DNA of 64,000 nt from a virus (IMGVR_UViG_3300022074_000019:13924-77923); one strand, 5' to 3'. Counted from the stretch's first letter, positions 12,570-61,872 are shown. Translations and numbers: made by a program. Notes: generated from the letters alone by a model not told the origin.

Positions 12570-12809
12570 TTATTTGCTAATAATATTCTTGTAAAAGTTT
12601 GCCTTCTTTTTCATTTTAGGTGTAGCATCAGGATCATTCAGCACTTTATTTGCAAAGGCCTTTCGTCCAGCTGGGGTGTCTGGGTGACCTGCTTTCGTAG
12701 CAGCTGCAGTAAACGTCCCCTTTGTTCCACCTTTTTTGCGGTGCGACATTTTTTCAAATGCTGCCTTGAGTCGATCGCCAGCTTTACGCATTTTTCTTTT
12801 TCTTCTCAA
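12570..12809 (-). CDS. Small basic protein
   Basis: Lys-rich; KGTFTAAA...MKKKANF. Confidence 0.55.
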   Translation of the reverse strand: MRRKRKMRKAGDRLKAAFEKMSHRKKGGTKGTFTAAATKAGHPDTPAGRKAFANKVLNDPDATPKMKKKANFYKNIISK

Positions 12810-12972
12810 AATGCTTACGCAGTTGCGGAGGCATCTTTGAAGTGTCCGTATCTTTTACATCAATCTTGCCATCTTTATTGGTGTCCTTCTTTGTAGAATC
12901 AGCTTCTTCTTTCTTTTTATCAAAGAATGCCTGAGCCTTTTCTTTTGCTTTAGAGCGATTATTGTTAGACAT
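12784..12972 (-). CDS. Small basic protein with EF-hand-like DTNKDGKID
   Basis: Own TACAAT -10 box. Confidence 0.55.
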   Translation of the reverse strand: MSNNNRSKAKEKAQAFFDKKKEEADSTKKDTNKDGKIDVKDTDTSKMPPQLRKHFEKKKKNA

Positions 12973-13007
12973 TGATAATCTGCAGTGCTGTTCTAATTGT
13001 AATAAAA

Positions 13008-13262
13008 TTAACGACGATACTTCGCAGTCTTTTTAGCAACATCATCTGGCTGTTTGCTGAACTGTTTGCCTTTGCGAGCTGCTGCACGTTTTTTAGCAGT
13101 GCTCCTGGCGTATTCCTTATCAGACAATGCTTCTCGTGCTTTTTTAGGCAGATAACGCTCACCTGTAGCATTTTTGCCTTGAGTACTATTTTTGCCAGAT
13201 TTAGTGCCCCAGTCTTCCTTGGTCCAACTATCTAATGATTTTTGTGATTCACGCTTAGCCAT
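13008..13262 (-). CDS. DUF5872-like C-terminal half
   Basis: QKSLDSWTKEDW.TKSG...ERYLPKKA. Confidence 0.6.
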   Translation of the reverse strand: MAKRESQKSLDSWTKEDWGTKSGKNSTQGKNATGERYLPKKAREALSDKEYARSTAKKRAAARKGKQFSKQPDDVAKKTAKYRR

Positions 13263-13474
13263 TAGTCTTTATAGCCTCCACCTTTTGCTTTGTATTCTTT
13301 GGCCATCATTTGGGCTTTACGAGCAGACCATTGCCCAGGTTTGCCGCCTTTGCTGCCAGCTTTGATGCGATTAAAAATCTGCTTGCGTAAACCAGGCTTG
13401 GTGTAGTTACCTGCCTCATTGACTCGGGATTTAGCTTTTGCTTTTGCTTTCGATCTGGATTCAGCAGACATCAC
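13262..13474 (-). CDS. DUF5872-like N-terminal half
   Basis: YTKPGLR...KGGKPGQWSARKAQ...EYK.KGGGY. Confidence 0.65.
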   Translation of the reverse strand: MMSAESRSKAKAKAKSRVNEAGNYTKPGLRKQIFNRIKAGSKGGKPGQWSARKAQMMAKEYKAKGGGYKD

Positions 13475-14058
13475 ATGTTCTCCTTAAGTTTAGTTAGACG
13501 CAAGGCTTGCTTTTTGTGTTTGTCAGATGCGCCATGAAGCTGCTCGATAATTTCTGACATTTCACTATTAACATCAGATTCGTCAGCTGATTTATGCATT
13601 TCTTCTTCTGGTGACATTTTATCTTCAATTGGACCACCATGAATCCAAGCGTCACAGGTGCGATCACCTGCACATTTAAATTTGAACAGTTGGCAATAAC
13701 CTAAATTTGCATGCTCAATAACATGCCGAGGATCAACATAAGGTTCTTCTTCTGTTCCAATACCTCCGCCAATGCAGCACATCACCTTCCAAGTTTGATC
13801 AAAGGCTCCACAGTTGCCACACCGAGCAGACATTGCTTCACAGATGTCTGTCTTAAACAGATCTGCTTTCTGTTGCCAAAACTCTTCGTTTGGATAGTCA
13901 GGATTCAAAGGACCGTAATTAAAATTCTCAATGGTCCAATTCCTATTTTTTGTATTTTCATGCACATCCGTGGTTGCCAACGGGCATGATTCTTTGTGAT
14001 AAGTTACATGTTTACCAAGCATTGCTTGGGCTTGTCTTTCAGAATAATCCATTACCAC
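13471..14058 (-). CDS. Cys-rich hypothetical protein
   Basis: CGNC...GYC...FKC...TCDAW. Confidence 0.6.
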   Translation of the reverse strand: MVMDYSERQAQAMLGKHVTYHKESCPLATTDVHENTKNRNWTIENFNYGPLNPDYPNEEFWQQKADLFKTDICEAMSARCGNCGAFDQTWKVMCCIGGGIGTEEEPYVDPRHVIEHANLGYCQLFKFKCAGDRTCDAWIHGGPIEDKMSPEEEMHKSADESDVNSEMSEIIEQLHGASDKHKKQALRLTKLKENM

Positions 14059-14327
14059 TTCACCTTATGTGACCAATAACGTGCAGACAATTTACTGGGC
14101 TTTGAATCTTGTGCATTGTGTCGAGCGTAGTAAGACTTTTTGCGTGCCTTATCTTTGGCCGACTTAGGATTTTTACCAGCACCTTTTACGCCCTGTTGAC
14201 CAAAACGAATCAACTTTTCAGTGCTGCCTACTTTTGCAAGTACTGCATGGGATTTTTTCGGATGATTAGGTGTACGTTTTGGCTTATTATAGCCAGAAAA
14301 AACTTCACCCGCTTTACGAATAGCCAT
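14052..14327 (-). CDS. Small basic protein
   Basis: KLIRFGQQG...YARH...SARYWS..W pattern common in marine phages. Confidence 0.6.
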   Translation of the reverse strand: MAIRKAGEVFSGYNKPKRTPNHPKKSHAVLAKVGSTEKLIRFGQQGVKGAGKNPKSAKDKARKKSYYARHNAQDSKPSKLSARYWSHKVKW

Positions 14328-14348
14328 GCTATTGCTTACGCTACTACC

Positions 14349-14761: not shown

Positions 14762-14826
14762 TAATTACATCCAAGGGTTGCTTACATTCTACAAGTTAGA
14801 ATTGTGGTATACGATTTAGAATCAAT

Positions 14827-21290: not shown

Positions 21291-21291
21291 A

Positions 21292-27363: not shown

Positions 27364-27843
27364 CTATCGATAGTTTTGGTTTAACCAAATGCGTGAACCC
27401 ACTGCTGTGTCTGCAGGACCAGGAATAGCCATGACAAATTCAGATCCTGAGCGTTCAAATGCATAGCGACGGACGTCAGGACGCCGATAGTTAGGAACAT
27501 ATAGAGTTTCAGCAAGACGGTCAACTTCACGTAGGTAGATCTCACGTGCATATGAATCGCCTTTCAAAGGATCAGTCGTGCGAATTGTTCGCTGAACATC
27601 ACCAGCAATCTGTTCGATCCGGCTTGCGTTTACTTGACCATTAGCAGTGTCATAGTATTCACTGGCTTCATAAGCAACGTCACAGCGGCGAATGTGATCA
27701 ACAATTTGATTGTAAAAATACTCATCTGGGATGAGCGCCATTGCTTCTTCTAGACGAGCACGATCACCAGCAGGAAGTTGTGAGCCAGAATTAAATCCTA
27801 GATGGAATCTAGTTTTTGACTTCAGTAGTTCGTTTAGTTCCAT
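27364..27843 (-). CDS. Putative head-tail adaptor
   Basis: Position downstream of capsid; N-terminal R.HLG pattern. Confidence 0.4.
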   Translation of the reverse strand: MELNELLKSKTRFHLGFNSGSQLPAGDRARLEEAMALIPDEYFYNQIVDHIRRCDVAYEASEYYDTANGQVNASRIEQIAGDVQRTIRTTDPLKGDSYAREIYLREVDRLAETLYVPNYRRPDVRRYAFERSGSEFVMAIPGPADTAVGSRIWLNQNYR

Positions 27844-28253
27844 TAGCCAAGAATCCCATCACGTGTATATGCTGCTTTTAGAATCTGCTGCAATTCATAC
27901 TGTTGATCGGGTGTCATCTCTTTTCCTGCAGCCTCTTGTGCTTGCAGTTCAGCCAAAAGTGCTCCTGTTCGTCCAGATTCCTGCATTGCAGATTGTTGAG
28001 CTGCTGCTCCTAAGCCACCACCGAGGATTGCTCCTACAAGACCACCAGCCATACGAATGCCAGGTTTCAAAATACGGTTTGTCCCTCGCATATTGCCAAT
28101 AGCTTTTCCAAGTGGCTGTGCCAATGAACCGCCAAGTACACCTAGACCACCGCCCAGCGCGGCGGCTGCAGCAGTCGAATCACTTAGGCGAGGACCCTGT
28201 TCTGCCTCATTGGCAGCTTGCGCCAACAAAATTTGTTCTAGACGAGGATCCAT
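27843..28253 (-). CDS. Gly/Ala-rich hypothetical protein (RMAG motif)
   Basis: Gly-zipper-like segments. Confidence 0.55.
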   Translation of the reverse strand: MDPRLEQILLAQAANEAEQGPRLSDSTAAAAALGGGLGVLGGSLAQPLGKAIGNMRGTNRILKPGIRMAGGLVGAILGGGLGAAAQQSAMQESGRTGALLAELQAQEAAGKEMTPDQQYELQQILKAAYTRDGILG

Positions 28254-30623: not shown

Positions 30624-31016
30624 ATGGAATTTATCGATAGCAAGGAATGGGTGCCTGTGCATACTCTTCCCGGTTTCGAATGCTGCATCGAATATTATGT
30701 AAATGCTTCTGGTGATATCAAAAGCACTAAAGGGACAATTGAACGTATTCTTAAACAGAAAATTGCAAAGACTGGATATCCTGTTGTTAATTTGACTCAG
30801 CGTGTGGGTCGTAAGAAGATACTTACTATTCCAGTTCATACACTTGTAGCTTTTGCTTTTCTAGGATTACCACCAACTCCCTACGGTAAGCGTAAAGGTT
30901 GTAGTGTTGTTCGTCATATTGATGGCAACAAGAAAAATAATAAAGTAGAAAACCTAATGTGGATCAAACGTCAGCAACAAAAAATAACTAAAATAGAGAA
31001 AGTAGAAATTGAGTAA
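30624..31016 (+). CDS. NUMOD4/HNH homing-endonuclease-like protein
   Basis: EW.PV..LPGFE..Y.V...G.IKS; VH.LVA.AF; VRHIDGNKKNN..ENL. Confidence 0.85.
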   Translation: MEFIDSKEWVPVHTLPGFECCIEYYVNASGDIKSTKGTIERILKQKIAKTGYPVVNLTQRVGRKKILTIPVHTLVAFAFLGLPPTPYGKRKGCSVVRHIDGNKKNNKVENLMWIKRQQQKITKIEKVEIE

Positions 31017-31024
31017 AACATCTA

Positions 31025-31540
31025 ATGGCTGATCGAGTTATCTACAAAGGTGGACAATCTGTTCCTGTCAATACTGGTGGTAATATTCAATTGGTCCTTC
31101 CCAAGCGTGGTAGTTATCATAGATTTCCTCGTTGGTGGAATAAGAAGCCCGGAGCTTATATTGAGTGTGCAATCTTTCGAGTCAAGCTAGATAATGGGTC
31201 TTACGTTCGTCTGATTATTCCTTCGGCAGACCGCATTAATCTTGAGATCCGTCACGACGGATTTGGTAACTTTACTTTTCCTGCAGCACGAATTGATCGG
31301 GTAGCTATTTTTAAAGATGAGTCTCCCGATCTGTTGGTTGAATATCAATTTTCTAAAATTTCTGGTGGCAAAGTTCTAAAGCGTAGTGTGTCTCCACTGC
31401 CTCCTTATCCTGCACCACCTGAGCCGCTTACTCCTTTGGAAAAGTTTCCACGTCGCCCTTCTGCTCTCAAACGTCGTAAAAAGACAACGATTAAAGTTGA
31501 GGTTAAAGATCAAGCTGAAGAATCGACGTCAGACAGTTAA
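31025..31540 (+). CDS. Hypothetical protein
   Basis: 171-aa ORF. Confidence 0.55.
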   Translation: MADRVIYKGGQSVPVNTGGNIQLVLPKRGSYHRFPRWWNKKPGAYIECAIFRVKLDNGSYVRLIIPSADRINLEIRHDGFGNFTFPAARIDRVAIFKDESPDLLVEYQFSKISGGKVLKRSVSPLPPYPAPPEPLTPLEKFPRRPSALKRRKKTTIKVEVKDQAEESTSDS

Positions 31541-33234: not shown

Positions 33235-33564
33235 CTAAGCGCGAGATATTACGCCTACTATTTCTTCCTCTGGCTCACTATGTAGCATTGCAAATCTTGT
33301 ACTTTCTTTCGGAGCTTCCGTTGCACCTTCGAGGGCTTCAACTGCCATTGCCTGAGCGGCATGTTCGTTAAAACCTTTCTCTCGGTAGATGTCATAGAAA
33401 CGCTCATATTTTTCAATAGAGCTATCAAGATCTTCACCATGATGCAGCATTTCAGCCGTCAAATGATTGGCGGCTTGATCAGGCACACCATCGGTCTTAA
33501 GGTGCTTCCAAATAGTTTGGAATACCTCAGGATCTTGTTTAGGAGTTTCACCTGCTAATCGCAC
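33235..33564 (-). CDS. Hypothetical protein (RLAG motif)
   Basis: ORF with TAGAAT -10. Confidence 0.55.
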   Translation of the reverse strand: MRLAGETPKQDPEVFQTIWKHLKTDGVPDQAANHLTAEMLHHGEDLDSSIEKYERFYDIYREKGFNEHAAQAMAVEALEGATEAPKESTRFAMLHSEPEEEIVGVISRA

Positions 33565-36965: not shown

Positions 36966-37616
36966 TCAGTTAAACCGTAGTCCAGCAAATGCACCTTCTT
37001 CAGCTAAACGTCGCCGTGGCATTGATAAGGAATTACCAAACATCATTGACCCTCTAGTTTGGCTGTAATCATTTCCAATACTGGTGTAATCTCCAAAGGT
37101 GCTATCTGTAATATTAGTAGTCATATCTCCACGCTTACCAATGTTGGCATCAATGTTACCAGCATTAAACGATCCTGTTTCTCCGCCAATTACAAAGACG
37201 GGAGCTTCTTCTTTAATAGGAGGCATTACTGGTATTTCGAATACAGGTGAAGTAGGCTCCGGACGTAATTCAAATGGTGACTCCATTACTGGTGCTGAAG
37301 ATTCAGCAGGCTCAGTACCGATGTCATTAGCAGGATTCTTAGGCTCAGTCGGTGCAGGCTCTGCAATTTGCTTACCGGTTAAACGAGAGTAATCATCTTC
37401 AGCAAATTTTCCTCCCTGGAAAGCCATAATAATATCTTTATCGCTATATCCAGAAAGATCATATTTATTTCTATCTACCATGCCTAATCTTGCCGCGGCA
37501 CGCTCTGGATCAGCAGCGATGCGCTCGCGCGCGTTCTCATTACGTTGAGCAAGACTAAGTTCTTTTTTGAACTCATCGCTTCCTGCCATTCTAGTTTTAG
37601 ACATTATTTGTATCAA
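36966..37616 (-). CDS. Hypothetical virion protein (RMAG), paralogue of 37646-38956
   Basis: Shared IGK.GDM.T.IT.S.FG...S.GNDYS.T.G.M.FGN block; ATG start probably 37604. Confidence 0.55.
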   Translation of the reverse strand: MIQIMSKTRMAGSDEFKKELSLAQRNENARERIAADPERAAARLGMVDRNKYDLSGYSDKDIIMAFQGGKFAEDDYSRLTGKQIAEPAPTEPKNPANDIGTEPAESSAPVMESPFELRPEPTSPVFEIPVMPPIKEEAPVFVIGGETGSFNAGNIDANIGKRGDMTTNITDSTFGDYTSIGNDYSQTRGSMMFGNSLSMPRRRLAEEGAFAGLRFN

Positions 37617-37645: not shown

Positions 37646-38956
37646 CTATTTCAGATATTTCATTGCATTTTCGTAGATGTCTTCACCTGGATCCAAATCA
37701 ACTGGTCGTGGAGCAATTGGCATTTCGAAAGTAGGTGCCTGATAACCAGCTATCGATCCCATATACTGACTTCGGATTTGATCCACTTTGTCTTGTAAGT
37801 AGTTCTGATTGGCTCCAGCAAACTTAAATGCAGCAACTCGATCTGTATTTGGACGGGAATTAGCTTTTCTGGCTTGTTCAATAGCACCAGCTGCACGCCC
37901 ATAACCACTTAACTGAGATTTAGAGCGTTGAAGAAAATTGTCGTTTAGTGCGTTGTAGGCAGTGGCAGACTGCATATTTGCTAAGGCACTATCAGCATTA
38001 GTACTACCAGAAACTCCACCATTATTGCCAAAGCGCATATTGCCAACAGTGACAGAGTAATCATTGCCGACACTGGCACCTGCACCGAATTGGCTATTAG
38101 TGATTGTGGTATCCATATCGCCTTGCTTGCCAATGGTGGCAGTGATGTCTTCGGCATTAAAGGAATTGTCAGTGTTGACGTTACCAATGCCTCCCATGTT
38201 GCGTTCACCATCAACGTTGCCGCTGTTATCGAACTGTTGATTGCCATCACCAATGATTCCCTCATTGTTATTAAGAGAGTCATTGATTTGGTTGTTTCCA
38301 GTGCCTATAACAGTATTGGCGGGTTTTGGTTTGGGCATGACTTGAGGCTTGAGGGGTGTAGAATTATTTTTCTCTTCAAGCAACTTTTTATATCGAGCCA
38401 TGTCGGACTTACCAAACATACGACCACCATCCAAAGCTTTAAATGCTAGTTCTTTATCAAGACCTTTAGTTTGCTTCTCAAACAAAGCCTTTAGATCTGC
38501 AGTAGAGCTATCTTTAATTCCGTGCCGTTTCTGTGCATCAGCAAAATATGCTTCGTTGGCTTCCTTGAATGATTGAGCCCTTTCTTTAGCTTGAACGAGT
38601 TTATCATCCTTCTTGGCTAGCTTGCCTTGAAGTTTTTCAATTTTTTGATCCTTTCGGTCGATCTTTGCGTCCTTTCTTTCTATCGTATTACTGGCTTTAT
38701 TGAGTTGGTTTTCGATTCTCTTTGGCTTATTTTGAATGGCTTGAGCTTTATTTTTAGCTTTTTGCTGTTTGATAAGTTTATTGTATCGCTGCATATCTCT
38801 ACCCTGGGTGTCAAAGCTGCCACCACCATCTAGTGCCTGAAAAGCTAAACCTGCATCCAGACCTTTAGTTGCTTCCTTGTAATCAGAAAACATTCTGTCT
38901 GCTCGACTTTTATCTCCACCAGCTTTATTTAAAAAATATTCTCTATTTGCAGCCAT
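37646..38956 (-). CDS. Hypothetical virion protein
   Basis: Coiled coil, N/G-rich region, internal duplication. Confidence 0.6.
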   Translation of the reverse strand: MAANREYFLNKAGGDKSRADRMFSDYKEATKGLDAGLAFQALDGGGSFDTQGRDMQRYNKLIKQQKAKNKAQAIQNKPKRIENQLNKASNTIERKDAKIDRKDQKIEKLQGKLAKKDDKLVQAKERAQSFKEANEAYFADAQKRHGIKDSSTADLKALFEKQTKGLDKELAFKALDGGRMFGKSDMARYKKLLEEKNNSTPLKPQVMPKPKPANTVIGTGNNQINDSLNNNEGIIGDGNQQFDNSGNVDGERNMGGIGNVNTDNSFNAEDITATIGKQGDMDTTITNSQFGAGASVGNDYSVTVGNMRFGNNGGVSGSTNADSALANMQSATAYNALNDNFLQRSKSQLSGYGRAAGAIEQARKANSRPNTDRVAAFKFAGANQNYLQDKVDQIRSQYMGSIAGYQAPTFEMPIAPRPVDLDPGEDIYENAMKYLK

Positions 38957-40819: not shown

Positions 40820-41352
40820 TACCCGTTTACCTCGCTATACACTTTTGCCCAAACCGCATTCATTGCATTTTCAATGGGTTCAGAAAATTGAGGATCATCT
40901 TTGAAGATGGCTGTTAGTTCACGCATAACACGGTCAGCACCAGCCAAAATCAATCCACGTTTGTCAGTTGTTTTGTTAAATCGTTCAGAAGTCTCAATAT
41001 GACTGCGTAGTTCTTTCTCTAGGCTTGCAAGTCGCGCTGCTCCGTCTGATCCTTTTATCTCACCAGAAGTGATAGCCATACGCAACTCTTGAATATCACT
41101 ATGCAACGCACTGATTTCACTGTTCAAGATGCCACGTCGATCAAGCTTTTTAAATTTCATTTTGATCCATCGGGCCAGATCATTAAATGAACCTTCGTAT
41201 CCACAGATACCTGCATATACCCAAATCTCAATTACTGAAGGAGTGACATCAGCAAATTCTCTGAAGTCCTCACTCTCAGCGGCAGGAAGTGAATCCAACC
41301 ACTGATCAACAACTGTGAGATATATCTTACCGGTTGACGTAGAAGTAGTCAT
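40819..41352 (-). CDS. Possible terminase small subunit
   Basis: Helical 177-aa protein close upstream of terL; positional evidence only. Confidence 0.35.
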   Translation of the reverse strand: MTTSTSTGKIYLTVVDQWLDSLPAAESEDFREFADVTPSVIEIWVYAGICGYEGSFNDLARWIKMKFKKLDRRGILNSEISALHSDIQELRMAITSGEIKGSDGAARLASLEKELRSHIETSERFNKTTDKRGLILAGADRVMRELTAIFKDDPQFSEPIENAMNAVWAKVYSEVNG

Positions 41353-43268: not shown

Positions 43269-44201
43269 ATGTCATTTATTCAAGCTGGTAATGAAGCTGT
43301 TCGTGCTGCATTAAAAGCAAGAATTGCTGCTGAACGGAATAAACCTAAATACGACCGATTTGGTAAACAAGCTATTCAAGATCAGACTGCGCAAGATCTC
43401 CTTTCAATGGAGATTCGTGGACGTGCTCAACAGGCTGCTATGGCTGTAAAGTCTAATCAAAAAACACGAGAAATAAATAGAGAGGCGGAAGAGTTTGCTA
43501 AAGAGCAAGTTCGCAGTGCAAAGATGGCAGGTAAGTTGGCTGGTGGAGCTGCTTTGATTGGAAGCTCTTATTTCATGAGTAAGCGCAAGGATGAAGCGGA
43601 TGGAAGAATCAGTATGCTTCAGGACTTTATTGATAAAAATAATGAATTAGGCCGTAGAGATCAAGAGGAATATAATCAACGATCAACTGAATCTCCCACT
43701 GAAACAGTAAGTGAGAATGATGCTTCTACTACTTCCTTATCAGGAAGTTATCCGACACCTAGTTCTAAAGAGACTTTGTCTGAATCATTTCCAAAGCCTA
43801 TTTCCTCTGGTCAGGCAATGTCTGCAGGTCTAGGTTCATACAAAGGTGGACCTAAGGCCACACAGGCTCAAATGACTAAGTTTGCAGAGCAGGCAGGCTT
43901 TAGTCCTGAGAATGCAAAGATTATGGCAGCAATTGCAATGGGTGAATCTGGCGGACGTCTAAAAATCGATACAGTCCAATCTGGACTTGATCCCAATATG
44001 AAAAATGAGTTTTCTGTTGGTGCTACTCAAATCAACGTTCAGGCACATGGAGACAAGCTTGCAAAACTTGGGTATACAGCCGATGATCTACGAGATCCTG
44101 TCAAGAATTTCCAAGTTGCCAAAATGGTTTACGACGAGATGGGCTCGTTCTCGCCGTGGAGCGTTTATAAATCTGGAGACTACAAACAGTATCTTGATTA
44201 A
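43269..44201 (+). CDS. Virion-associated lytic transglycosylase (SLT-like)
   Basis: AIAMGESGG...G.TQIN...DP..N...A...Y......PWSVY. Confidence 0.8.
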   Translation: MSFIQAGNEAVRAALKARIAAERNKPKYDRFGKQAIQDQTAQDLLSMEIRGRAQQAAMAVKSNQKTREINREAEEFAKEQVRSAKMAGKLAGGAALIGSSYFMSKRKDEADGRISMLQDFIDKNNELGRRDQEEYNQRSTESPTETVSENDASTTSLSGSYPTPSSKETLSESFPKPISSGQAMSAGLGSYKGGPKATQAQMTKFAEQAGFSPENAKIMAAIAMGESGGRLKIDTVQSGLDPNMKNEFSVGATQINVQAHGDKLAKLGYTADDLRDPVKNFQVAKMVYDEMGSFSPWSVYKSGDYKQYLD

Positions 44202-44908
44202 ATCGTGAAACCTTGGCCTAGATTTCGTAGTCCAGCCATTAAGGTCATAAACATACGATCTTTGCGCTCTTGTGCTTTTAGTTTGTCAGCTTGCTGAAGC
44301 TGCATAATTTGTAGCTGATAATTTCTGTTTTGAGCCGCTCTGTTATCAGCACGATCTTGATACTGCAATCTCATACGTTCGTCATAACGCTTTTGTTCTT
44401 GGATTCTGGCATTTTCTTTTTCTTTTTTCGCTTCTGCAACCTGTCTTTGACTGTCAGCAGCTCGAAGAGCATTAATAGTAGAGACAGTCGCTCCAGGTCC
44501 TAGCTTAGTGAGATCTAATCCAGGATTAGTGATTTGAGCTTCAGCCAAAGCTTGCCCCGTTAGTTGCATTTCAAGCAATCGATTTTTAGCAGCTACAGCA
44601 GTTTCACCTTCCTGAACTTGTAAAGCTTCTTCGGTAGTATTTATACCAGGAATAATGTCTCCTAGCTGCCGAGCTTTTAATCTTTCTTGAGACAGTAATT
44701 CGTTGAGGTCATTACGCTTAATTTCTGCAGCTCTTTGACGTAAGGCTTCTTCTGAGAATTGATCACCTTTTCCTAACAAAAAGGCAGCACCTTGACGAAA
44801 CCGATCACCAATATCAAAGCCGTCTTTAAATTTCTTTCTATCTTTTGTTAGCTCTTCACCGCTAGCAACTTCATCTTGATCAAGAATATTAAAAATGTCG
44901 ATACTCAT
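44198..44908 (-). CDS. Putative internal virion protein
   Basis: Coiled coil, late block. Confidence 0.5.
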   Translation of the reverse strand: MSIDIFNILDQDEVASGEELTKDRKKFKDGFDIGDRFRQGAAFLLGKGDQFSEEALRQRAAEIKRNDLNELLSQERLKARQLGDIIPGINTTEEALQVQEGETAVAAKNRLLEMQLTGQALAEAQITNPGLDLTKLGPGATVSTINALRAADSQRQVAEAKKEKENARIQEQKRYDERMRLQYQDRADNRAAQNRNYQLQIMQLQQADKLKAQERKDRMFMTLMAGLRNLGQGFTI

Positions 44909-45432
44909 CAGAACATTCCTCCACGAAGTGCTGCCAAAGCTTCTTCCATTCTACGTTGTTCTGGTGTCTTTCTATCTCCAAGAATGAACTGTGTGGCATC
45001 ACTTGCCATCTTGCCCAGGCCAACACCTGCAGCAGTTCCAAGAGGGCCACCAACAGAACCAAGTGCACCACCAATCATCATGGCAGTTGCATCCATTGCT
45101 TTGTTTGCACCACTCTCTTGACCAAACACAAGGTCACCAACTGCCATTGCACCGCCTAAGGCACCCAAGCCAGGTGCCAGAACTCTTGCTGCAGCACCTA
45201 CTTTTGCCATGCCGGGAAGTGAGCCCAAAGCTGCACCTGCAGAACCAGCCATTTTGCGTCCACCTTTGCCGACTGCACGGCCAGCTACCGCTTTTGCTTG
45301 GCGAGTGGGTTGCTCAAGTCCTCCATATAGCTGAGCTACTAAATCTCCATACACTTCAGCTCCTTCCTGAGCAAGGACACGGCCTCCTTGCATTTCACGT
45401 AGCAGTAGCTCTTTTTCTAGCTGGGTCATCAC
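44908..45432 (-). CDS. Gly-zipper putative internal virion protein
   Basis: GGALGSVGGPLG-type segments. Confidence 0.5.
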   Translation of the reverse strand: MMTQLEKELLLREMQGGRVLAQEGAEVYGDLVAQLYGGLEQPTRQAKAVAGRAVGKGGRKMAGSAGAALGSLPGMAKVGAAARVLAPGLGALGGAMAVGDLVFGQESGANKAMDATAMMIGGALGSVGGPLGTAAGVGLGKMASDATQFILGDRKTPEQRRMEEALAALRGGMF

Positions 45433-46123: not shown

Positions 46124-46555
46124 TCAAGGCTTAAAAATCGAATATCCAATATCTTGTGTGTAAAATTCACCAGGACTCATTCCTCCAAAAATAGTATCTT
46201 TATTGAACGCATCACTATATGTTCCTATTTTTGGCCCTTCTAATTTAATAGGTTTTTTGCCAAAAACTCCGCCTTTAATTGCAGAGCCACTAATATTTCC
46301 AACCGCTCCTGCAAATGCTCCAGTCAGTCGAGCATCTGCTTGTTCTGCCACTCCAAATGCCTCAGCATCTCTTGCATATCTTGCAGCTTCATTTCGAGCA
46401 ATTGTATTAAGAGCATTAGCTTGAGCTTCACCCATGGTTCCCATGGTTGCTAGATCTTGATCTACAGCATCTTTAATGCCACGTCCGCCAATTTCGTCAT
46501 AACCTGCATTCTTTGCCATAAATGATGCAAGACCAGGGGGATTAGCAAAGCGCAT
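46124..46555 (-). CDS. Putative internal virion protein
   Basis: A/G-rich; own TAAACT -10. Confidence 0.5.
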   Translation of the reverse strand: MRFANPPGLASFMAKNAGYDEIGGRGIKDAVDQDLATMGTMGEAQANALNTIARNEAARYARDAEAFGVAEQADARLTGAFAGAVGNISGSAIKGGVFGKKPIKLEGPKIGTYSDAFNKDTIFGGMSPGEFYTQDIGYSIFKP

Positions 46556-46583: not shown

Positions 46584-47741
46584 TCAAAACTGTGGATTAT
46601 TCAATTGATTTTCTACGGTGTTACGCCGACGTCGCTCCTCCTCAAGTAAGTTTCCTGCAATTTGACCAGCTGCAAGTCCAGTCACACCGCCAACAAAACC
46701 ACCACGGATTGGCTTTTTACTTCTAACACCTGCAACACCGCCTGCTAATGCACCAAGATATGGAACGATGCCTGTAGTTACTGGAAGACTACGTCCAAGG
46801 AATTGCAGTTCAGGTCCGTGCACCCCCTCACTAGTAGTTTTCACAACACCACCAGGAAGTCCAAACTTGCCATCATCAAATGGATTCAAGTCGATCCCTT
46901 TGTCATATTTAAACGCTTGATAAGCTCTGTACTCTTCAGGTGATACATCTGGACGAACCTCTTTGAACTCACTATATGGAAGCATCTTTCCAGTAGAGCC
47001 CATTAGATATTTCAGTCCTACTTCGCCAAGGACGTTTGCTGTTTTTGTTGGATCCTCTTCACTAGGAAGCGCAGCCTTATAACCTTCTGCTCCACCAAAT
47101 GGTGTTAGCAAACCAAGTCCAGTGTTGATCGCAATTCCTGTAGGAATACCAAGTGCAGCTAAATACCCAGGTTCAAAGTTTCGTTTTTGTACATTGCCTT
47201 CACTATCAATACTTACACCTTTACGTGGGTTCCCAGCATCGTCTAAATACTTACCACCTTTAGGGGTAGTCTTGATCTTACCTACGGTCCTCTTTCCATA
47301 AAGAGAGGGATTAGCCAGGCCCATTGCGGACTCTGCAATTACATTGCCTGTAGCCTGTGCAGCATTCAGAAGCCAATAGAAGTTACGAGTATTGTCCTGT
47401 GTCACGTCTGCAGCCACAGTTCCTAACATCTGTCCAGACCTAGGACCAATGCCTTGTCTAGCACCTATACCCAAATCCTCTCGAATCATCCGAGCGTCCC
47501 TCTCTTTTTTTGAGAGAGTTTTTAGCCCCATATTCATAAGGGCATCATCAATAGCTTCTTTTGTTCGAATGCCGGTTGGATATGCACCAGCCATTTCTGA
47601 CATTCGTGGAGCATTCTCAGATTGACCAGCTGCTTTGCGTCCTTCACGATATGCCTTAGACCACTCTTCCCTACCTTCACCGTAAGCTTCTCTTGTCGCA
47701 TCCAAGAATCCTCCAAGATTTAGTGGCAATCGTCTAGCCAT
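46584..47741 (-). CDS. Putative internal virion protein
   Basis: G-rich 385-aa ORF. Confidence 0.55.
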   Translation of the reverse strand: MARRLPLNLGGFLDATREAYGEGREEWSKAYREGRKAAGQSENAPRMSEMAGAYPTGIRTKEAIDDALMNMGLKTLSKKERDARMIREDLGIGARQGIGPRSGQMLGTVAADVTQDNTRNFYWLLNAAQATGNVIAESAMGLANPSLYGKRTVGKIKTTPKGGKYLDDAGNPRKGVSIDSEGNVQKRNFEPGYLAALGIPTGIAINTGLGLLTPFGGAEGYKAALPSEEDPTKTANVLGEVGLKYLMGSTGKMLPYSEFKEVRPDVSPEEYRAYQAFKYDKGIDLNPFDDGKFGLPGGVVKTTSEGVHGPELQFLGRSLPVTTGIVPYLGALAGGVAGVRSKKPIRGGFVGGVTGLAAGQIAGNLLEEERRRRNTVENQLNNPQF

Positions 47742-48259
47742 TACGCAACTCCATAACCAGTAGTGGGATCTGCATACTGTTCACGTGTGCCTGGAAGCAA
47801 TCCATACTGAGCAAGGATCTGTCGCTCAAGGTCTGCAGCAAATGCAGCTTGTTGTTCTGCACCCATGCGTTCAAAGGGTGTTAGGCCTTGCCCACCCATG
47901 ACTAGGTCCTTCCCTCGCATGATTTGATCTCCTACTGCCATGCCGGCAACATCACCCCCAAAAGATCCAGCGAAGTCTGCAATATTTTGAACTGTCATAT
48001 TGTTTCTCATTCCTGGCAATGCTCCAACAGCTCGGCCTGTAGCTAAACCACCAAGGCCGCCACCGATAGCACTAGCACCGCCTGCAATTAGTTTATCTCC
48101 AAGATCTCCAGGAGTTTGTGTAGCAGCAAGGACACCGAAGATAGCATCAGGTGCAAGACGTCCTGCAATTTGTTCTTTAGTCATTCCACCAAACAAAAGA
48201 TCTTTTGAGGTTCCCCCAAGTTTTTTAAGCAGCTCTCCTGCCATTCGTGCTTTCGACAT
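47741..48259 (-). CDS. Gly-rich protein (RMAG)
   Basis: Coupled ORF. Confidence 0.55.
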   Translation of the reverse strand: MSKARMAGELLKKLGGTSKDLLFGGMTKEQIAGRLAPDAIFGVLAATQTPGDLGDKLIAGGASAIGGGLGGLATGRAVGALPGMRNNMTVQNIADFAGSFGGDVAGMAVGDQIMRGKDLVMGGQGLTPFERMGAEQQAAFAADLERQILAQYGLLPGTREQYADPTTGYGVA

Positions 48260-48546
48260 TAGCCTGCCCCCATTTGAATTTTGGCTTGATTGAATTGCAT
48301 CCCTTGATTAGATTGTGCAAATTGTTGGTTCCATGTGTTTACCCTATTTGCAAGTACTGGATCTTGCATCAACTCCATTGCAAATGCTCCTCCAGGACCA
48401 GCCATTCGAATACCAGATGTTTTATCTAGATCTTGTGCAGGCTTAGAAAATGCAGCTCCGCCCTCAGTAGCAAAGTTACTTGGAGTTTCCTCAAGCTGCC
48501 TCTTGATAAGGTTCCCCTGCTTTACTTGTTCAGGATCAAAGCTCAT
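48259..48546 (-). CDS. Hypothetical protein (RMAG)
   Basis: Coupled ORF. Confidence 0.55.
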   Translation of the reverse strand: MSFDPEQVKQGNLIKRQLEETPSNFATEGGAAFSKPAQDLDKTSGIRMAGPGGAFAMELMQDPVLANRVNTWNQQFAQSNQGMQFNQAKIQMGAG

Positions 48547-50654
48547 CAGAATCTCCGGGGCATACGGCCAACATTGCTGGGATTAGCCATGGTGTATTGG
48601 CTAACAGTTCGCTCTTGTTCTTGACGCTTCTTGGCATCACGATTAGCACGCTCTTGAGTGAGTTGTGCTTTTACTACTTTACCGCGTAGATCTTGTTCAT
48701 CGACGGGCATGATGCGACCGCCAGACTTTTTGGCACGTTCGACTTGATTCAGACGTTCCTTCTCTCGCAGTGCTTTTTCAATCTCAACAGGATCGGTTTG
48801 ACGTGTTCTGTTGTAGCGAGTCTTGTAACCTGGGCCAGCATCTTGTTCAACACCTCGCTTACCGGTTTTTTTGTCAATTACTTCAACAGCACCGATGAAT
48901 GGCTGACGAGCACCGGGGCTGGTAAGACGTCGGAATGATGAGCCAATGTCTTTACCTTCCATCTGCTGACCAGGCTGAATTCTTGCAACAGGCGCTTGCC
49001 CATCACGGGGGTTAATAGCCTCTGGAGAATTGAAGAAAACTTTTGCACCACCTTCTGTGGTCAGAATGGTCTTGTCGGGGAACTCGCGGAACTGAGTGGG
49101 TTGCAACGAACCCATAGGTCCTGTCCGAGTGAAGTATTGCTGCTTGCCTTGCTGGTTGATGCCAGCATTTTTAGCAACTTCCATCTGGTACAAAGCGTTA
49201 GCTAGCTGTGCTTCTTCTGCAGGTGTGTAACGCATGCGGTTCAGTACACCGCGAACGTCTGGTTGGGCCTGACGCACACTCCTCAGTTTCCCAGTAGCAG
49301 GATCCATTTCTTTCGTGGAGAACTTGCCACCCCGAGCAACCATCATGTCGGTCACACGCTGCAGTTCGTCAACGCTACGGATGTTGGTAGAAATGTTGTT
49401 GAAACCTTCTTGTCCCTTCAGGCGGTTAGCAAACAAAGTAGTGGTTCCGGTCACGTCCACCTGGGGGTAGTCACCAAAACTACGTCCACCTTCTCGGTAG
49501 CCCGGTTGCTTTTGCACCATGAACGCACGTGATGTCATGGGTGCATTTAGAGCTGAACCTGCGTCAGTGTTTGGTGTCACATACTCAGGCCCTTGAACTG
49601 CCAAGGTATTGCCTGTTTGCGGATCCAGAGCTACTCCATCATTCCGGAATAGTGCTGATGGGTAGGTAATGTTTGCACCTGTGCGGCGAATCGCGTCTAG
49701 AGCTTCGTCTGCAGCCACCGCAGGGAGCTGTGCTCCTGGGAAAACTGAAGATGGGCGGTACATAGTCTCGCCAATGTCTTCAGCTTCAATGGAAGCCATG
49801 ATGTTGTTGTATGCGGCCCGTCGTCCAGACATGCCAGCTAAGTCGCGCTCATTTAACCGACGCGCAGCGTCGGCCTGAATCGCTTTTTCTGCAGCAGGAT
49901 TGAGCTGATCCTCTAGCCGGGTCTGAGCATCTTCGAAACCAGCGGGGTTGCCACTTCCACCAAACACTTGTGCGATGGCACCCTGAAGACCTTTCTGCTC
50001 TTGGGCAGATGCATTCAATTCGTTTAGGGCATCTTGCATCACAGACTTTGGTGCAATGGTGGGACGCTCAGCCCCTTCACCCATCTCACCTAGCTCAGCG
50101 ACCATGCGGTCGTATTCATTGGGGTCATACCCAGTCTTTAGGACGACCTGACCTCTCTTGTCATAAGTCCGTTTTCCATAAGGGTTGCGCTGGTCGGGCT
50201 CGGAGCGATCCTCAAACTCTTCCATCTGCTCACGCAGTTTTGCTGTTTCCTGAGCGCCGTATTGCGTATCACCTTCTTTGTAATCGTAGTACTGCCCCTG
50301 ATCTTGACCAAACGGATCCACTTCAGGCAGGTCCATGAGGCTTACCCCCCGGATCTCAGCACTCTGACTGACATCAGCAAGACTGTTGGCTGCCTGAACC
50401 ATCTGACGCTCTGCATCTTCCATAGAGAAGGCGTCGTCTTGGCGTCGTTGACGGCGAACCATCTTTGACATCTGAGCAAGAGTTTCTTCCTCACTCATTC
50501 CCAATGTGCGCCCAGCAGCAAAAGCTTCTGCGCTAGCAATCAACTTATCGTTGCTATCGTTGGCATGCTGTCTAAAGTTATTACTTGCAGACTGATTACC
50601 AATTGCAGTGATTACACGATTGTGAAGCTGCTGTCTATCTTCTAGAGATGCCAC
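48546..50654 (-). CDS. Large putative internal virion protein
   Basis: 702-aa ORF, TACAAT -10. Confidence 0.6.
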   Translation of the reverse strand: MASLEDRQQLHNRVITAIGNQSASNNFRQHANDSNDKLIASAEAFAAGRTLGMSEEETLAQMSKMVRRQRRQDDAFSMEDAERQMVQAANSLADVSQSAEIRGVSLMDLPEVDPFGQDQGQYYDYKEGDTQYGAQETAKLREQMEEFEDRSEPDQRNPYGKRTYDKRGQVVLKTGYDPNEYDRMVAELGEMGEGAERPTIAPKSVMQDALNELNASAQEQKGLQGAIAQVFGGSGNPAGFEDAQTRLEDQLNPAAEKAIQADAARRLNERDLAGMSGRRAAYNNIMASIEAEDIGETMYRPSSVFPGAQLPAVAADEALDAIRRTGANITYPSALFRNDGVALDPQTGNTLAVQGPEYVTPNTDAGSALNAPMTSRAFMVQKQPGYREGGRSFGDYPQVDVTGTTTLFANRLKGQEGFNNISTNIRSVDELQRVTDMMVARGGKFSTKEMDPATGKLRSVRQAQPDVRGVLNRMRYTPAEEAQLANALYQMEVAKNAGINQQGKQQYFTRTGPMGSLQPTQFREFPDKTILTTEGGAKVFFNSPEAINPRDGQAPVARIQPGQQMEGKDIGSSFRRLTSPGARQPFIGAVEVIDKKTGKRGVEQDAGPGYKTRYNRTRQTDPVEIEKALREKERLNQVERAKKSGGRIMPVDEQDLRGKVVKAQLTQERANRDAKKRQEQERTVSQYTMANPSNVGRMPRRF

Positions 50655-52231: not shown

Positions 52232-52534
52232 TTACGCGGATTTATCACCTTTCATTGCGTCACCAGCCATACGCATTTTCTTTGGCGCCGATTTTTTGGG
52301 CGATTTCTCCATATCAAGCGGTTTTTCACCTTCAATTCGCTCAATTGGCATGATTGATAGCTCATCTTCTCCACCGCCGTAACCGATTCCGATTAATGGT
52401 GAGCCTGGCAGGCACTTTTTAATCACCGGGTTGTAGGTATGACCAGGAGGGCAACCCGCTGCTCTAGCCAAAAGCTCTTCTTCCTCCATCATTTTGCGGA
52501 GTGTTGTTTTTCCAAACGGTGGAGGTACGCGCAT
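52232..52534 (-). CDS. Hypothetical protein (CPPG..C motif, RMAG)
   Basis: ATG MRVPPP downstream of a TACAAT -10. Confidence 0.5.
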   Translation of the reverse strand: MRVPPPFGKTTLRKMMEEEELLARAAGCPPGHTYNPVIKKCLPGSPLIGIGYGGGEDELSIMPIERIEGEKPLDMEKSPKKSAPKKMRMAGDAMKGDKSA

Positions 52535-52570
52535 TTTCTTGATATCCTTTCTTTCATTGTAGATACTACG

Positions 52571-52690
52571 AAACCACACTTGCCACACTATTTCTCTAAC
52601 CCTTGAAAATAAATATTAGTTAGAGAGGAAGAGAGAATAAAAAATAGGGTATATATAAACCTACGGTGGTTTTGCGTGGTTTCTGTGGTT
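52571..52690 (+). repeat. Iteron/AT-rich element copy B
   Basis: CCAC 52574, 52583; GTGG 52666, 52676, 52685. Confidence 0.65.
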
Positions 52691-55439: not shown

Positions 55440-55748
55440 TTATTGCAGATCAATTGTTCCACTCGACTGTTGATCCATCATCATCTGCGTCAGGTCGTAT
55501 AGACCTTTGCCTGCCAGCGTGACGCCCCCTGCCGGTAGCGCGTACCTCGCCGCTGCGTTTACGCCCAACATCCCGTATGCGGCTGCCTTCTCCGCTGCTG
55601 TGCCGGACGGTGCATACGTGATTGGGAATCCGGACGTCATCTGAACGAGGGGGTGTGCTCCCTTTGAAACCTTGGCTGCATATGCGTCATCGAACTCACG
55701 CAGAGATGCTCCAGCTTTCCTCAGTTTGTCCTTAACTTTACCAAGCAT
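55440..55748 (-). CDS. Late-type protein (RKAG) inverted in the early region
   Basis: TAGAAT -10 upstream on the minus strand. Confidence 0.55.
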   Translation of the reverse strand: MLGKVKDKLRKAGASLREFDDAYAAKVSKGAHPLVQMTSGFPITYAPSGTAAEKAAAYGMLGVNAAARYALPAGGVTLAGKGLYDLTQMMMDQQSSGTIDLQ

Positions 55749-59489: not shown

Positions 59490-59769
59490 TGTATCAGCTC
59501 CCTCTAACGAGGGGGCTTTTTTATATTCTCTATCCTCATATTGAACATGGGTCCACTATTCGGAAATCATCCCTTGCTTTTTCAAATTGCATCTAGAATG
59601 CAAGAACTAGGTTTTACTGAAGAAGAAAGCCTTGAAGTCGTTATTGGCGGTAGCTCTGTCTATGAAATTGACGGAGCTGGTACAAAATGGGCTCCTGTAA
59701 AAGGCACTCGTAAATACAATAGCGACGCCTTTATTGTTATTCGTAAACCTAAACCAGTAATAAGCTCAA

Positions 59770-59994
59770 ATGGTTGAACTACTTACTTACTACGTTATTT
59801 CTGGTCTCCTTATTGTGGGAGCACCAGCAATCTTTTTTCTGATTGTTTTTATGCCTGCTCTTCAGAATACGAAGGGTAGAATTGTTGGTTATCGAGATCA
59901 CAAGATATTTGGCAACTCATCAGTCTATGAGAATACTCATGGCGATAACACTAAATTCTTTCTTCAAATCCCTTATGATTCCAGAACTTCGTGA
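59770..59994 (+). CDS. Small membrane protein
   Basis: One TM helix. Confidence 0.5.
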   Translation: MVELLTYYVISGLLIVGAPAIFFLIVFMPALQNTKGRIVGYRDHKIFGNSSVYENTHGDNTKFFLQIPYDSRTS

Positions 59995-60186
59995 AGAGTT
60001 TGTGTTTGACTTAGCTAATCACATACTCAAGAAATCAACAAAAGCTGGTGTTTGGGCTATGGCTGTAGATCGCGTTTGCGATGTACTCCTGACTAAAACA
60101 GACGAAGAGCTAATTGATATGGCTCCTAGTAATCTTATCGTCTGTGATAAGACCAAGCACAATAAGAACAAACCTAAAGGCTTCTA

Positions 60187-60381
60187 ATGAAATTTACTAT
60201 AGAAAAATCTCGCTATGGTCTCTACACAAGTGTGTTTGAGGACGGTACAAAAGGCACCACTGCACTTACTGAAGAGGCTTGCCACTTTGTAACTGTCAAC
60301 ATCCGTATCCCTGTACTTCAGGGTACATGGGACGGAAACACTTCTGTTGTTGGATCAGCAGTCGTAGGTGGCAAGCTTTGA
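60187..60381 (+). CDS. Hypothetical protein
   Basis: Coupled ORF. Confidence 0.55.
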   Translation: MKFTIEKSRYGLYTSVFEDGTKGTTALTEEACHFVTVNIRIPVLQGTWDGNTSVVGSAVVGGKL

Positions 60382-61134
60382 TTACTTGCGTCGTTTACCG
60401 TTACCGTTAATCGCTTTTTCTAGGATTACGGTGTCAGCATTTATGGTGACCTGGCGGTCATCGCCGCCATTTTGACGCACTTGACTGTCGTAGTTACGCA
60501 GCTCGTCTCGTCCAACCTGTTTAATAATATTATTCATAACTGAATCTTTCATAGCCTGAGCTTCTACTTTCTGAGCCTCACGGACAGGACTCATGTCTAA
60601 TTTTTCACGCATAGATGGATGCTTTTCCAATAAATCATTAATGTAATTATTCATATCAGGCACAGCCTTAGTCATGTACTGCTTACCAACATGTTTACGA
60701 TAATCAAGAGGTAATTCGCTTGCATCTAAGATGTCTTGCACCATACCAAATGGTTTTGCATTTGGATGAAATTGATATCCTCTCTTTATTGCATACTCGT
60801 GAATGCCACTTTGATGAATATCCTGCGGCATATTAATTAAATTTAAAATGTTATTACCTGTTGCGCCATACTGGTTTAAATAGGCAGTAAGTTCTGCCGC
60901 TTCTGCATCAGTTAGCCCTTTGTATAAAGGATCTAACGTTTTAAGAATAGCTCTGTGGTGAGCCTGTTCGCCAGGTCGAGCCTTCATCAACTCATAAACA
61001 ACAGTATCGTCTGAATTCTTGGCACGACGCATCATGTTTTTGCCAGTTGCATCATTTAGTTGTGATTTATAAGCCTCTCCAGCTTTATTTGCTAAACCTG
61101 GAGACTGATAATCTCTAGCTGCACCACGAGTCAC
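60382..61134 (-). CDS. AHH/HNH-like nuclease-fold protein
   Basis: QAHH...N..NL..MP...H...IH. Confidence 0.5.
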   Translation of the reverse strand: MTRGAARDYQSPGLANKAGEAYKSQLNDATGKNMMRRAKNSDDTVVYELMKARPGEQAHHRAILKTLDPLYKGLTDAEAAELTAYLNQYGATGNNILNLINMPQDIHQSGIHEYAIKRGYQFHPNAKPFGMVQDILDASELPLDYRKHVGKQYMTKAVPDMNNYINDLLEKHPSMREKLDMSPVREAQKVEAQAMKDSVMNNIIKQVGRDELRNYDSQVRQNGGDDRQVTINADTVILEKAINGNGKRRK

Positions 61135-61248
61135 ACATATACATACCTATGACTATTTATTCATCTAGGTATCACTATCTACATCTACATCGTATCTAAT
61201 TTGTATTAACAATTAGAATAAAATAAAGGCGCTAAGTATTTACTAGCA

Positions 61249-61872
61249 ATGTCATTTCAAAGAGATAAAGACGGAAATTATCTTGTTCCTATCGTCTCCT
61301 TAGGCGAACGCCTGCGTGATAACTTCGGATTAACTATCAAAGAGCATTCGCACTTTGACAAAGTTGATAACGTTCATTCACCTAATAGCTATCACTATTA
61401 CGACGAAGCACTTGATATTCAAGACTGGCGTGGAGGATCAGGTGCAGGTGCTGAAGGTTTTAATGGTGTCGGTTATCAACAGCGCACCAAAAATCTGCGT
61501 GACTTGATGCGCGGCTCAGGTGCTGAAGTGATCGGACCTGGTGACATGGAAGGTCACGACACTCACCTTCACCTGGCAGCGAAAGGAGGGATCTTCAAGC
61601 TCAACGAAGATCAATACAACTATCTTTTTAGTGATACTTCTGGTGGTCGTTCTTCTACTTTTGCTCCTCTTACTCCTTCTTCTTCAACTCCTTTAGATCC
61701 TTCTACTCCTTCGCCTGTAGCTGATACTCAAGTTGCACCAGCAACTGATTACACTAATATGTCTAAGCAGCAGATTAATGATGCATACGACAAGCTTCGC
61801 ATGGCTGGTGATGTGTTTGCGGCTGAAAAAGAAGGCATGAAGATGCACAAGGCATTCTTTAATGAGAAGTAA
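61249..61872 (+). CDS. Zn peptidase (M15-like) putative peptidoglycan hydrolase, RMAG tail
   Basis: SYHYYDEALD (H-x6-D) and HLH. Confidence 0.6.
   Translation: MSFQRDKDGNYLVPIVSLGERLRDNFGLTIKEHSHFDKVDNVHSPNSYHYYDEALDIQDWRGGSGAGAEGFNGVGYQQRTKNLRDLMRGSGAEVIGPGDMEGHDTHLHLAAKGGIFKLNEDQYNYLFSDTSGGRSSTFAPLTPSSSTPLDPSTPSPVADTQVAPATDYTNMSKQQINDAYDKLRMAGDVFAAEKEGMKMHKAFFNEK

Follow-up and report, generated by a model that had tools for sequence, protein, structure and literature searches.

In encapsulins, diverse cargo proteins carry short terminal peptides that dock in an inner-face pocket of an HK97-fold shell. Bacterial-microcompartment encapsulation peptides and the C-terminal coat-binding helices of the P22 scaffolding protein are amphipathic elements that recruit to a shell, and in P22 a basic residue is key. 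Short motifs also mark sites of proteolysis, as at the poxvirus I7L site (A-G↓X) and the adenovirus site ((M/L/I)-X-G-G↓X). In phage T4 the internal proteins IPI-III and Alt carry a capsid-targeting sequence (CTS), which is removed by the prohead protease gp21 (PMC3012670, PMC9026906), and the prohead proteases of phiKZ-like phages and of SPN3US cut at an S/A/G-x-E motif (PMC5694885, PMC7411985). Here we describe a four-residue peptide, R-x-A-G, that recurs in otherwise unrelated late proteins encoded in a 64,000-nucleotide stretch of viral DNA, bases 13924-77923 of the 77.9-kb record IMGVR_UViG_3300022074_000019 (hereafter the window; positions are counted from its first base).

An earlier sequence-only reading of the window had taken six exact copies of RMAG, together with several variants, for a sorting tag that loads diverse cargo into the virion, or else for a cleavage or modification site. 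Comparison with related viruses argues that the R-x-A-G tag is a real, lineage-wide signal, whose function we infer from sequence only. The lineage is one of widespread, barely studied cyanobacterial viruses. The capsid protein shares 71% identity with its counterpart in Synechococcus phage S-EIV1, its sole match among isolated phages, and S-EIV1 counterparts were found for only about one quarter of the window's proteins. S-EIV1-like phages are reported to be abundant in fresh and marine waters. The genome under study is that of a cyanophage, because beyond the window it has genes for a photosystem reaction-centre protein, transaldolase, ribonucleotide reductase and ThyX.

Results

RMAG is over-represented in the window

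All six RMAG copies that had been claimed are present, every one in the coding frame of a long open reading frame (ORF). The coordinates first attached to them are the low ends of these ORFs, which serve as protein names below, and not motif positions (Table 1). Genes were called by a greedy choice of ORFs, and not all starts are certain. A six-frame search of the window, and of the 77.9-kb genome as a whole, gave no further RMAG. The six carriers are different proteins, none of which was placed in a known family by searches of Pfam and PHROGs.

Composition leads to an expectation of 0.23 copies (Poisson p 1.6e-7), which bears out the original estimate of well under one by chance, and RMAG is the most extreme among 4-mers spread over separate proteins. 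As the 4-mer had been picked after sight of the sequence, a family-wise shuffle test was used: any 4-mer was equally extreme in only 3 of 300 within-protein shuffles of the proteome (family-wise ~0.01). Taken alone, the window makes a suggestive rather than an overwhelming case for enrichment. The next most extreme dispersed 4-mers are EQIA and QIAG, found in five different proteins each (0.26-0.36 expected).

The motif is conserved as a peptide in related viruses

A search of IMG/VR with the tagged proteins and family alignments yielded about 25 related contigs, six of them near-complete at 73-82 kb. Across these contigs the motif takes the more general form R-[M/F/L/I/K]-A-G. The window's clade has M at the second position, other relatives often F, and several families K. 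In S-EIV1 this residue is L or I: its syntenic proteins use RLAG and RIAG (MRLAG in 48012; both RIAG and RLAG in 49618-50427), and its protein AHV82208 begins MRLAG. This variation justifies in principle the earlier grouping of RKAG and RLAG with RMAG. The variants that had been listed are all present in the window, but their support from orthologues is unequal and several are not conserved. RMAG as the unit likewise proved too narrow, in that what is conserved is R, a hydrophobic residue or K, A and G, plus a helix; the shared peptide itself is real.

On the gene strand of the relatives R[MF]AG occurs 73 times, at 23 non-redundant loci, compared with 1-14 occurrences for each of the other 23 residue orderings and 8 for the motif on the opposite strand. 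The two commonest control orderings, GR[MF]A and [MF]AGR, overlap the motif. Eight near-complete genomes contain 6-14 copies of R[MFLIK]AG each, nearly all on the late strand, with medians of 1-2 for the other orderings. Many of the instances are orthologous, and these counts are not of independent events.

At the DNA level, the pattern MGN-ATG-GCN-GG gave 18 matches in five relatives, all on the late strand, and one match with the reversed control; all 18 are in-frame RMAG within ORFs. All six Arg codons, from both codon families, are in use, as are all Ala and Gly codons, and the second codon alternates among ATG, TTY, AAR and CTN. Because all six Arg codons are used and the second codon varies, selection acts on the peptide and not on DNA or RNA, and these codon data refute a DNA-level signal.

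Clustering resolved about ten carrier families that are unrelated by sequence. The motif is invariant in orthologues of 40-65% identity, while its flanks are variable. When two carrier families were compared with hhalign only the 8 motif columns aligned, at a probability of 0.3%, and hidden homology between tagged families was rejected on this ground. Three Gly-rich carriers (27843, 44908 and 47741), each of which weakly matches one Gly-rich S-EIV1 protein, may be distant paralogues. A tblastn search with 47741 gave no match in isolated phages, and a literature search for RMAG and RFAG returned unrelated uses only, with no paper on this motif.

A profile trained on the relatives only was then scanned against the window proteome. 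It picked, in order, 12570, 47741, 48259, 61249, 14052, 55440, 27843, 44908 and 36966, with 33235 next; fewer than one pick is expected in a shuffled proteome, compared with these nine. The sequence-only reading had proposed two checks, enrichment over shuffled proteomes and conservation in orthologues. RMAG comes through the first (3/300) and, in several carrier families, through the second, which supports a functional shared peptide signal.

The tag caps an amphipathic helix

Of 104 distinct instances, 55 lie within the first 12 residues of the protein, positions that make up 6% of the total. The remark that the motif is often near a terminus thus holds, specifically for the N-terminus. Usual N-termini are MSKxRMAG, MRFAG, MTRFAG, MxxRKAG[DE] and MRLAG. 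About half of the copies are internal, and ahead of these lies either an extension, Gly-rich or of low complexity, or a linker that varies. As a rule there is one Arg only, preceded by T, M, G or S, and the residue after the Gly is mostly polar (E, S or D). The frequency of hydrophobic residues is highest at +1/2, +5/6, +9/10 and +13, and the helical hydrophobic moment over the 11 residues past the motif is 0.41, compared with 0.30 in random or N-terminal control segments (p 2e-11).

The tag unit is therefore R-x-A-G capping an amphipathic helix of ~14 residues. Peptide-level selection, portability between unrelated families, the N-terminal bias and the amphipathic helix are all direct observations. 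AlphaFold2 (AF2) monomer models of 47741 and 48259 are of low confidence (predicted local distance difference test, pLDDT, of 65 and 62). In the former the motif lies inside an N-terminal helix; in the latter it lies at the junction between a coil (residues 21-50) and a helix (51-61).

Two described signals were compared with the tag and rejected. The twin-arginine translocation (Tat) signal consists of S/T-R-R-x-F-L-K and a hydrophobic region, whereas the tag has a single Arg preceded by T, M, G or S. A class III signal of type IV prepilins is a short basic leader ending in Gly, followed by ~20 hydrophobic residues; here a hydrophobic stretch is found only in 27843, 43269 and 44908, and most tags are polar or acidic and amphipathic downstream. 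Sequence searches of the PDB with two family profiles and the capsid protein found nothing, and the ESM Atlas returned unnamed viral clusters only.

Carriers in the window differ in support

The copies in the window range from firmly supported to poorly conserved (Table 1). In the 47741 family, R5 and A7 are shared by all of 22 diverse homologues. In a set of 120 homologues, RMAG and RFAG are found 24 times each and RLAG 13 times, besides RFAF, RMAM and others, mostly at residues 2-7. The 48259 family has RMAG in 62 of 70 homologues, the others being RKAG, RFAG, RTAG or fragments; R47, A49 and G50 are invariant and the preceding linker varies in length and sequence. RMAG[SE] is invariant in the 36966 family behind leaders of 4-20 residues, with an Arg codon that alternates between AGA and CGG in orthologues. 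Public gene calls of this family (P0191 and others) often begin at the Met within RMAG (MAGSDEF...), so that both Arg and leader go unseen. A start at the upstream ATG is more likely, because the Arg codon is conserved across codon families.

The minus-strand ORFs 36966-37616 and 37646-38956 are partial paralogues, with tagged or tag-like N-termini and a common C-terminal segment of ~48 residues that is ~65% identical. The NKAG of the latter is partly supported by its family, in which 5 of 14 members begin MSKKRMAGE, MSRMAGD or MSKSRKAGE. In about ten relatives of 27843 (34-99% identity) RMAG, RFAG or RIAG is found, always with a GGLVGAILGG-like sequence next to it. The 33235 orthologues begin MRLAG, VRLAG, xRKAGD or xRKAGE in relatives G001, G004/G005, G006, G007, G008 and G010, and MRKAA in G002. 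An N-terminal R[KM]AG is present in six of nine members of the 55440 family (for example MDKRKAGEFL and MDSLRMAGQKV), and the window protein has a profile score of 12.6, for which 0.38 matches are expected per shuffled proteome.

Support for the KMAG copies is less direct. In 13 of 18 members of the 44908 family, xGRFAGS occurs in the region of the window's KMAG, although exactly how it aligns with that copy is uncertain. In 43269 orthologues the residues aligned to KMAG are AMAG, RKAG, RKAG and QMAG. This protein carries a C-terminal lysozyme-like SLT_3 domain (PF18896, E 2e-12), and thereby accounts for one of the two peptidoglycan hydrolases that had been placed among the cargo; the second has no support from Pfam, nor has the label 'AHH-like' given to another carrier. 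The orthologue of 46124 in G001 begins MTRMAG. Small ORFs adjoining the 47741 orthologue in relatives begin MTRFAG, MARFAG or MRFAG, and only that of G001 was matched to 46124.

The remaining copies are doubtful in different ways. The RKAG of 12570 has the top profile score in the window (21.8), and its orthologues (70-75% identity) carry RKQAKGL or RSKAKSL in its place. For 14052 the score is 13.1 (0.34 matches expected), and the S-EIV1 orthologue is without the motif. The 61249 copy scores 18.7 although its family is absent from the training set; it is kept in G006, decayed in G007 (LRAGKD) and absent in G005. By eye, 61249-61872 (plus strand) shows H-x6-D and H-x-H spacing like that of LAS-type zinc cell-wall peptidases, with no Pfam match. 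RMAG occurs in only one of eight members of the 52232 family, and the alignment to the G001 orthologue stops short of the motif; this copy is probably not functional. Neither the RKAG of the recombinase 11426 nor the NKAG of 62465 is conserved in orthologues, and the NKAG of 60382 is unsupported, its single weak match leaving the motif uncovered.

Table 1. Copies of the tag, and features of the late arm, in window coordinates.
Feature	Protein	Coordinates	Strand	Assessment
RMAG, residues 5-8 (MSKARMAG)	172-residue Gly-rich protein 47741-48259	48236..48247	-	firmly supported
RMAG, residues 47-50	95-residue protein 48259-48546	48397..48408	-	firmly supported
RMAG, residues 5-8 (MSKTRMAG, ATG start)	protein 36966-37604, between terminase and portal	37581..37592	-	firmly supported
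RMAG, residues 67-70, then Gly/Ala-rich hydrophobic stretch	136-residue protein 27843-28253	28044..28055	-	firmly supported
RLAG, residues 2-5 (MRLAG)	109-residue protein 33235-33564, between portal and capsid genes	33550..33561	-	firmly supported
RKAG, residues 10-13	102-residue protein 55440-55748	55710..55721	-	firmly supported
KMAG (GRKMAGS), residue 60	174-residue Gly-rich protein 44908-45432	45244..45255	-	moderately supported
KMAG (SAKMAGKLAGG), residue 85	310-residue protein 43269-44201	43521..43532	+	moderately supported
RFAN, residues 2-5 (MRFAN)	143-residue protein 46124-46555	46541..46552	-	decayed copy
NKAG, residues 10-13	436-residue protein 37646-38956, partial paralogue of 36966	38918..38929	-	decayed copy
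RKAG, residues 4-7 (MAIRKAGEVFSGY)	91-residue basic protein 14052-14327	14307..14318	-	N-terminus unaligned in all orthologues
RKAG, right behind probable ATG start (MRKAGDRLKAAF)	protein 12570-12791	12777..12788	-	exact motif not conserved
RMAG, residue 184 of 207, near C-terminus	protein 61249-61872	61798..61809	+	kept in one of three orthologues
RMAG, residue 106 of 118, 9 residues from C-terminus	protein 52232-52588	52262..52273	-	poorly conserved
Tail-fibre-like proteins		15843, 18353, 20229, 45429	-	late arm
Major capsid protein	375 residues	29382..30509	-	phrog_1357, E 8.6e-20
Portal		34735-36930	-	late arm
Large terminase		38968	-	late arm
Sigma factor	between portal and capsid genes	32238-33179	-	phrog_351, E 9e-81

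Untagged proteins include candidate partners

R[MFLIK]AG is absent from the capsid, portal and terminase clusters, and also from 40819 and from the large proteins 48546 and 41352. Among relatives the capsid protein is 89-93% identical, compared with 67-79% for the portals and 38-66% for the tagged proteins there; relative to S-EIV1, portal and terminase are 43% and 55% identical, both below the capsid protein. As the most conserved protein of the lineage, the major capsid protein is a lead for the reader of the tag, because a protein that keeps a pocket for many clients would behave in this way.

The other candidate is an acidic protein that would be encoded just after the portal gene (34161-34814). 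ORF 34161-35180 (minus strand) overlaps the last 445 nt of the portal ORF in another frame, and both frames look conserved in relatives (56-72% identity in the portal frame and 53-64% in the other). An ATG at 34814 would yield an acidic protein of 217 residues at the usual position of a scaffold gene; a frameshift product is also possible.

The late arm

The late arm runs on the minus strand from ~52.6 kb down to 12.6 kb. Apart from the tail-fibre-like, capsid, portal, large terminase, sigma-factor and SLT_3 proteins, those encoded there match no known family in Pfam or PHROGs. Two plus-strand ORFs (30624-31540) accompany the sigma-factor gene, and S-EIV1 has no such insertion at this place. 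Directly upstream of the terminase gene, 40819-41352 (minus strand) encodes a protein of 177 residues, over 100 of which reach 90% conservation or more in a comparison of 25 loci. No Pfam or PHROG family matched this protein, and by eye it looks like a helical protein of the small-terminase type; it may be the small terminase subunit.

The Gln-rich repeat protein 41352-43202 (minus strand) varies from 154 to 1160 residues among relatives. In relative L049 four occurrences of RLAG or RVAG fall within its repeat (EQLRLAGLND). Several tagged genes on the minus strand (starts 37604, 33564, 55748 and 38956) are preceded, at a distance of 15-35 nt, by a word like TAGAAT or TAGAATA, which may be the -10 element of a late promoter.

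Discussion

We tentatively favour a reading of the R-x-A-G helix as a portable docking or address peptide for particle assembly, which would act through one shared, conserved partner. On this view a portable amphipathic helix ~14 residues long, with R-[M/F/L/I/K]-A-G as its invariant N-terminal cap, would be placed at or near the N-terminus or past a flexible or Gly-rich extension in ten or more unrelated late-strand families throughout the S-EIV1-like lineage. Through this tag, minor particle proteins would bind one common conserved partner while the particle is built. The clients would be the Gly-rich membrane-like proteins, the lysozyme-domain protein, small proteins encoded in the terminase, portal and capsid region and, in relatives, a short fibre-like protein. 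Putative partners are the capsid protein, with its unusual conservation, and the acidic protein whose gene follows that of the portal.

Three invariant residues, portability and an accessible position followed by an amphipathic helix are what would be expected of a peptide recognized by one partner. Docking during assembly is preferred because the carriers are encoded in the structural arm, searches across the genome reveal no protease gene, the 375-residue capsid protein is free of such a site and the conserved unit exceeds what a cut would require. By analogy, the lysozyme-domain and Gly-rich membrane-like carriers appear to resemble what other podovirus-like phages carry inside the particle. 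We infer that the carriers bind a common partner and are present in the virion, and which protein that partner may be.

The sorting tag proposed from the window agrees with the N-terminal bias, the variable leaders and the amphipathic helix. Purely intracapsid cargo is disfavoured by the finding that in relatives the tag is borne by a short protein with a tail-fibre-type C-terminal domain, so the target may not be the capsid interior. A wider reading, which we consider unlikely, is that the R-x-A-G helix serves as the general address code of a protease-free lineage of tailed phages. One pocket on the HK97-fold capsid protein or on its scaffold would then recognize a single 14-residue peptide on a dozen unrelated proteins and set the minor-protein content of the particle.

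Several points weigh against docking. In 27843, 44908 and 43269 the motif is followed by a Gly/Ala-rich hydrophobic stretch and not by an amphipathic helix, an arrangement that is also compatible with a function at membranes. Distant members of the 47741 family have F, M or A in place of the Gly. The second residue shows no co-variation between families within genomes, where M, F and L are mixed; this gives no signal of co-evolution and is in itself neutral. S-EIV1 is the only isolate with these genes, and no proteomics for S-EIV1 was found.

The most serious alternative, though a less likely one, is that the motif is a maturation cleavage site, at which a phage or host protease would cut between A and G or past the Gly to remove short leaders (MSKA-RMAG, M-RFAG) or longer extensions. 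The leaders vary in sequence and in length, from 1 to ~60 residues, with conservation from the Arg onward, as in propeptides; some proteins have two copies (48012 and 49618 of S-EIV1), and the four fixed positions resemble the P4-P1 residues that a specific protease would recognize. Several viral and LexA-type proteases cut at A-G. A cut site and an address tag can also coexist, as in the T4 CTS (PMC3012670).

However, Pfam and PHROGs detected no protease family in the ORFs scanned, which came from the late arm and from the remainder of the genome, although a host protease, or one too divergent to be recognized, might act. The Pfam scans gave no Peptidase_C5, C57, C48 or other peptidase, and no catalytic His, Cys or Ser signature was found among the conserved proteins of no family. 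The capsid protein and the portal are without the motif, and the Gly is replaceable in the 47741 family. Finally, the conserved unit runs ~10 residues downstream as an amphipathic helix, which cutting would not need.

Invariance of R-x-A-G is also not something that membrane helices require, which makes it quite unlikely that the motif reflects common membrane chemistry, an Arg and a hydrophobic or amphipathic segment serving to target or insert ejection- or lysis-related proteins. Amphipathic helices are classic membrane-binding elements, and the Gly/Ala-rich stretches after the motif in 27843, 44908 and 43269 are of transmembrane length; a language-model search also gave weak Gly-zipper neighbours (score 0.76), which we treat as a lead only. 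Against this, a strongly hydrophilic or acidic character is frequent among the tagged helices (RMAGSDEFKKEL, RLAGETPKQD, RMAGDKINEDRN), and it is mostly E, S or D that follows the Gly.

That the copies have no common function, and result from chance and from hidden paralogy among low-complexity Gly-rich proteins, is very improbable and largely refuted. It could draw on the choice of the 4-mer after sight of the sequence, the weak matches of 27843, 44908 and 47741 to one Gly-rich S-EIV1 protein, and the poor conservation of two of the six exact copies (52232 and 61249). It is opposed by the family-wise shuffle (~0.01), by the ordering control (73 compared with at most 14), by the N-terminal bias and by retention of the motif in families without other similarity. 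A nucleic-acid signal, a DNA or RNA site like MGN-ATG-GCN-GG lying by coincidence in coding sequence, is scarcely credible: all copies are on one strand and the window's two N-terminal copies agree at 20 of 24 bases, but all six Arg codons occur, ATG is exchanged for TTT/TTC, AAR, CTN or ATT, wobble positions are free, every copy is in the coding frame and there is no similarity upstream of the start codons.

Almost no structural protein of S-EIV1-like phages matches anything known, and the shared tag offers a route, by sequence only, to their likely minor particle proteins. As one peptide with three invariant residues it is also an experimental handle. For annotation it carries a warning, since gene callers often begin these genes at the Met within the motif.

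Comparison with known systems

The nearest known system to the R-x-A-G tag is the T4 CTS. Both are short, portable N-terminal peptides on unrelated phage proteins encoded by late or particle-associated genes, and as in T4 the same short N-terminal peptide is found on several non-homologous proteins (~ten clusters). A gp21-like protease or an L/I-x-E cut site was not found in the scanned ORFs and tags. The two peptides show no sequence likeness; four residues and a helix pattern are fixed here, whereas the T4 signal is a nearly identical 10-mer. In further contrast to the CTS, internal copies make up about half of the total, relatives have a fibre-like carrier, and the tag is known from sequences alone.

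Protease cut motifs share with the tag a short motif that recurs at a variable distance from the N-terminus, and the A-G pair is that of the poxvirus site. They differ in that here the searches revealed no protease gene, the site is missing from the capsid protein and a downstream helix belongs to the unit. The prohead-protease systems of T4, phiKZ and HK97 are not matched, as the capsid, portal and terminase clusters are without R[MFLIK]AG and the capsid protein matches its relatives over its full length. Nor did Pfam scans find a cognate cysteine protease of clan CE, the type found in poxviruses and adenoviruses. The helices of microcompartment encapsulation peptides and of P22 scaffolding differ in having no fixed tetrapeptide cap and in not being spread over ten families of one virus.

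The nearest protease-free analogue is the encapsulin system, which has in common with the tag a short conserved peptide past a flexible linker, unrelated proteins as bearers, the same class of shell fold and no proteolysis. Consistent with this likeness, the tag is a short conserved terminal peptide after a flexible linker, and the low-confidence AF2 model of 48259 has a coil before the motif. In contrast to the R-x-A-G helix, encapsulin peptides are mostly C-terminal and rich in Gly, Ser and Leu. If the tag works without a protease, the solution would be unlike the address-and-cut scheme of T4 and phiKZ and nearer to the cargo loading of encapsulins. A docking tag of this kind would amount to encapsulin-style loading within a phage, where attaching the tag could bring any protein into the particle.

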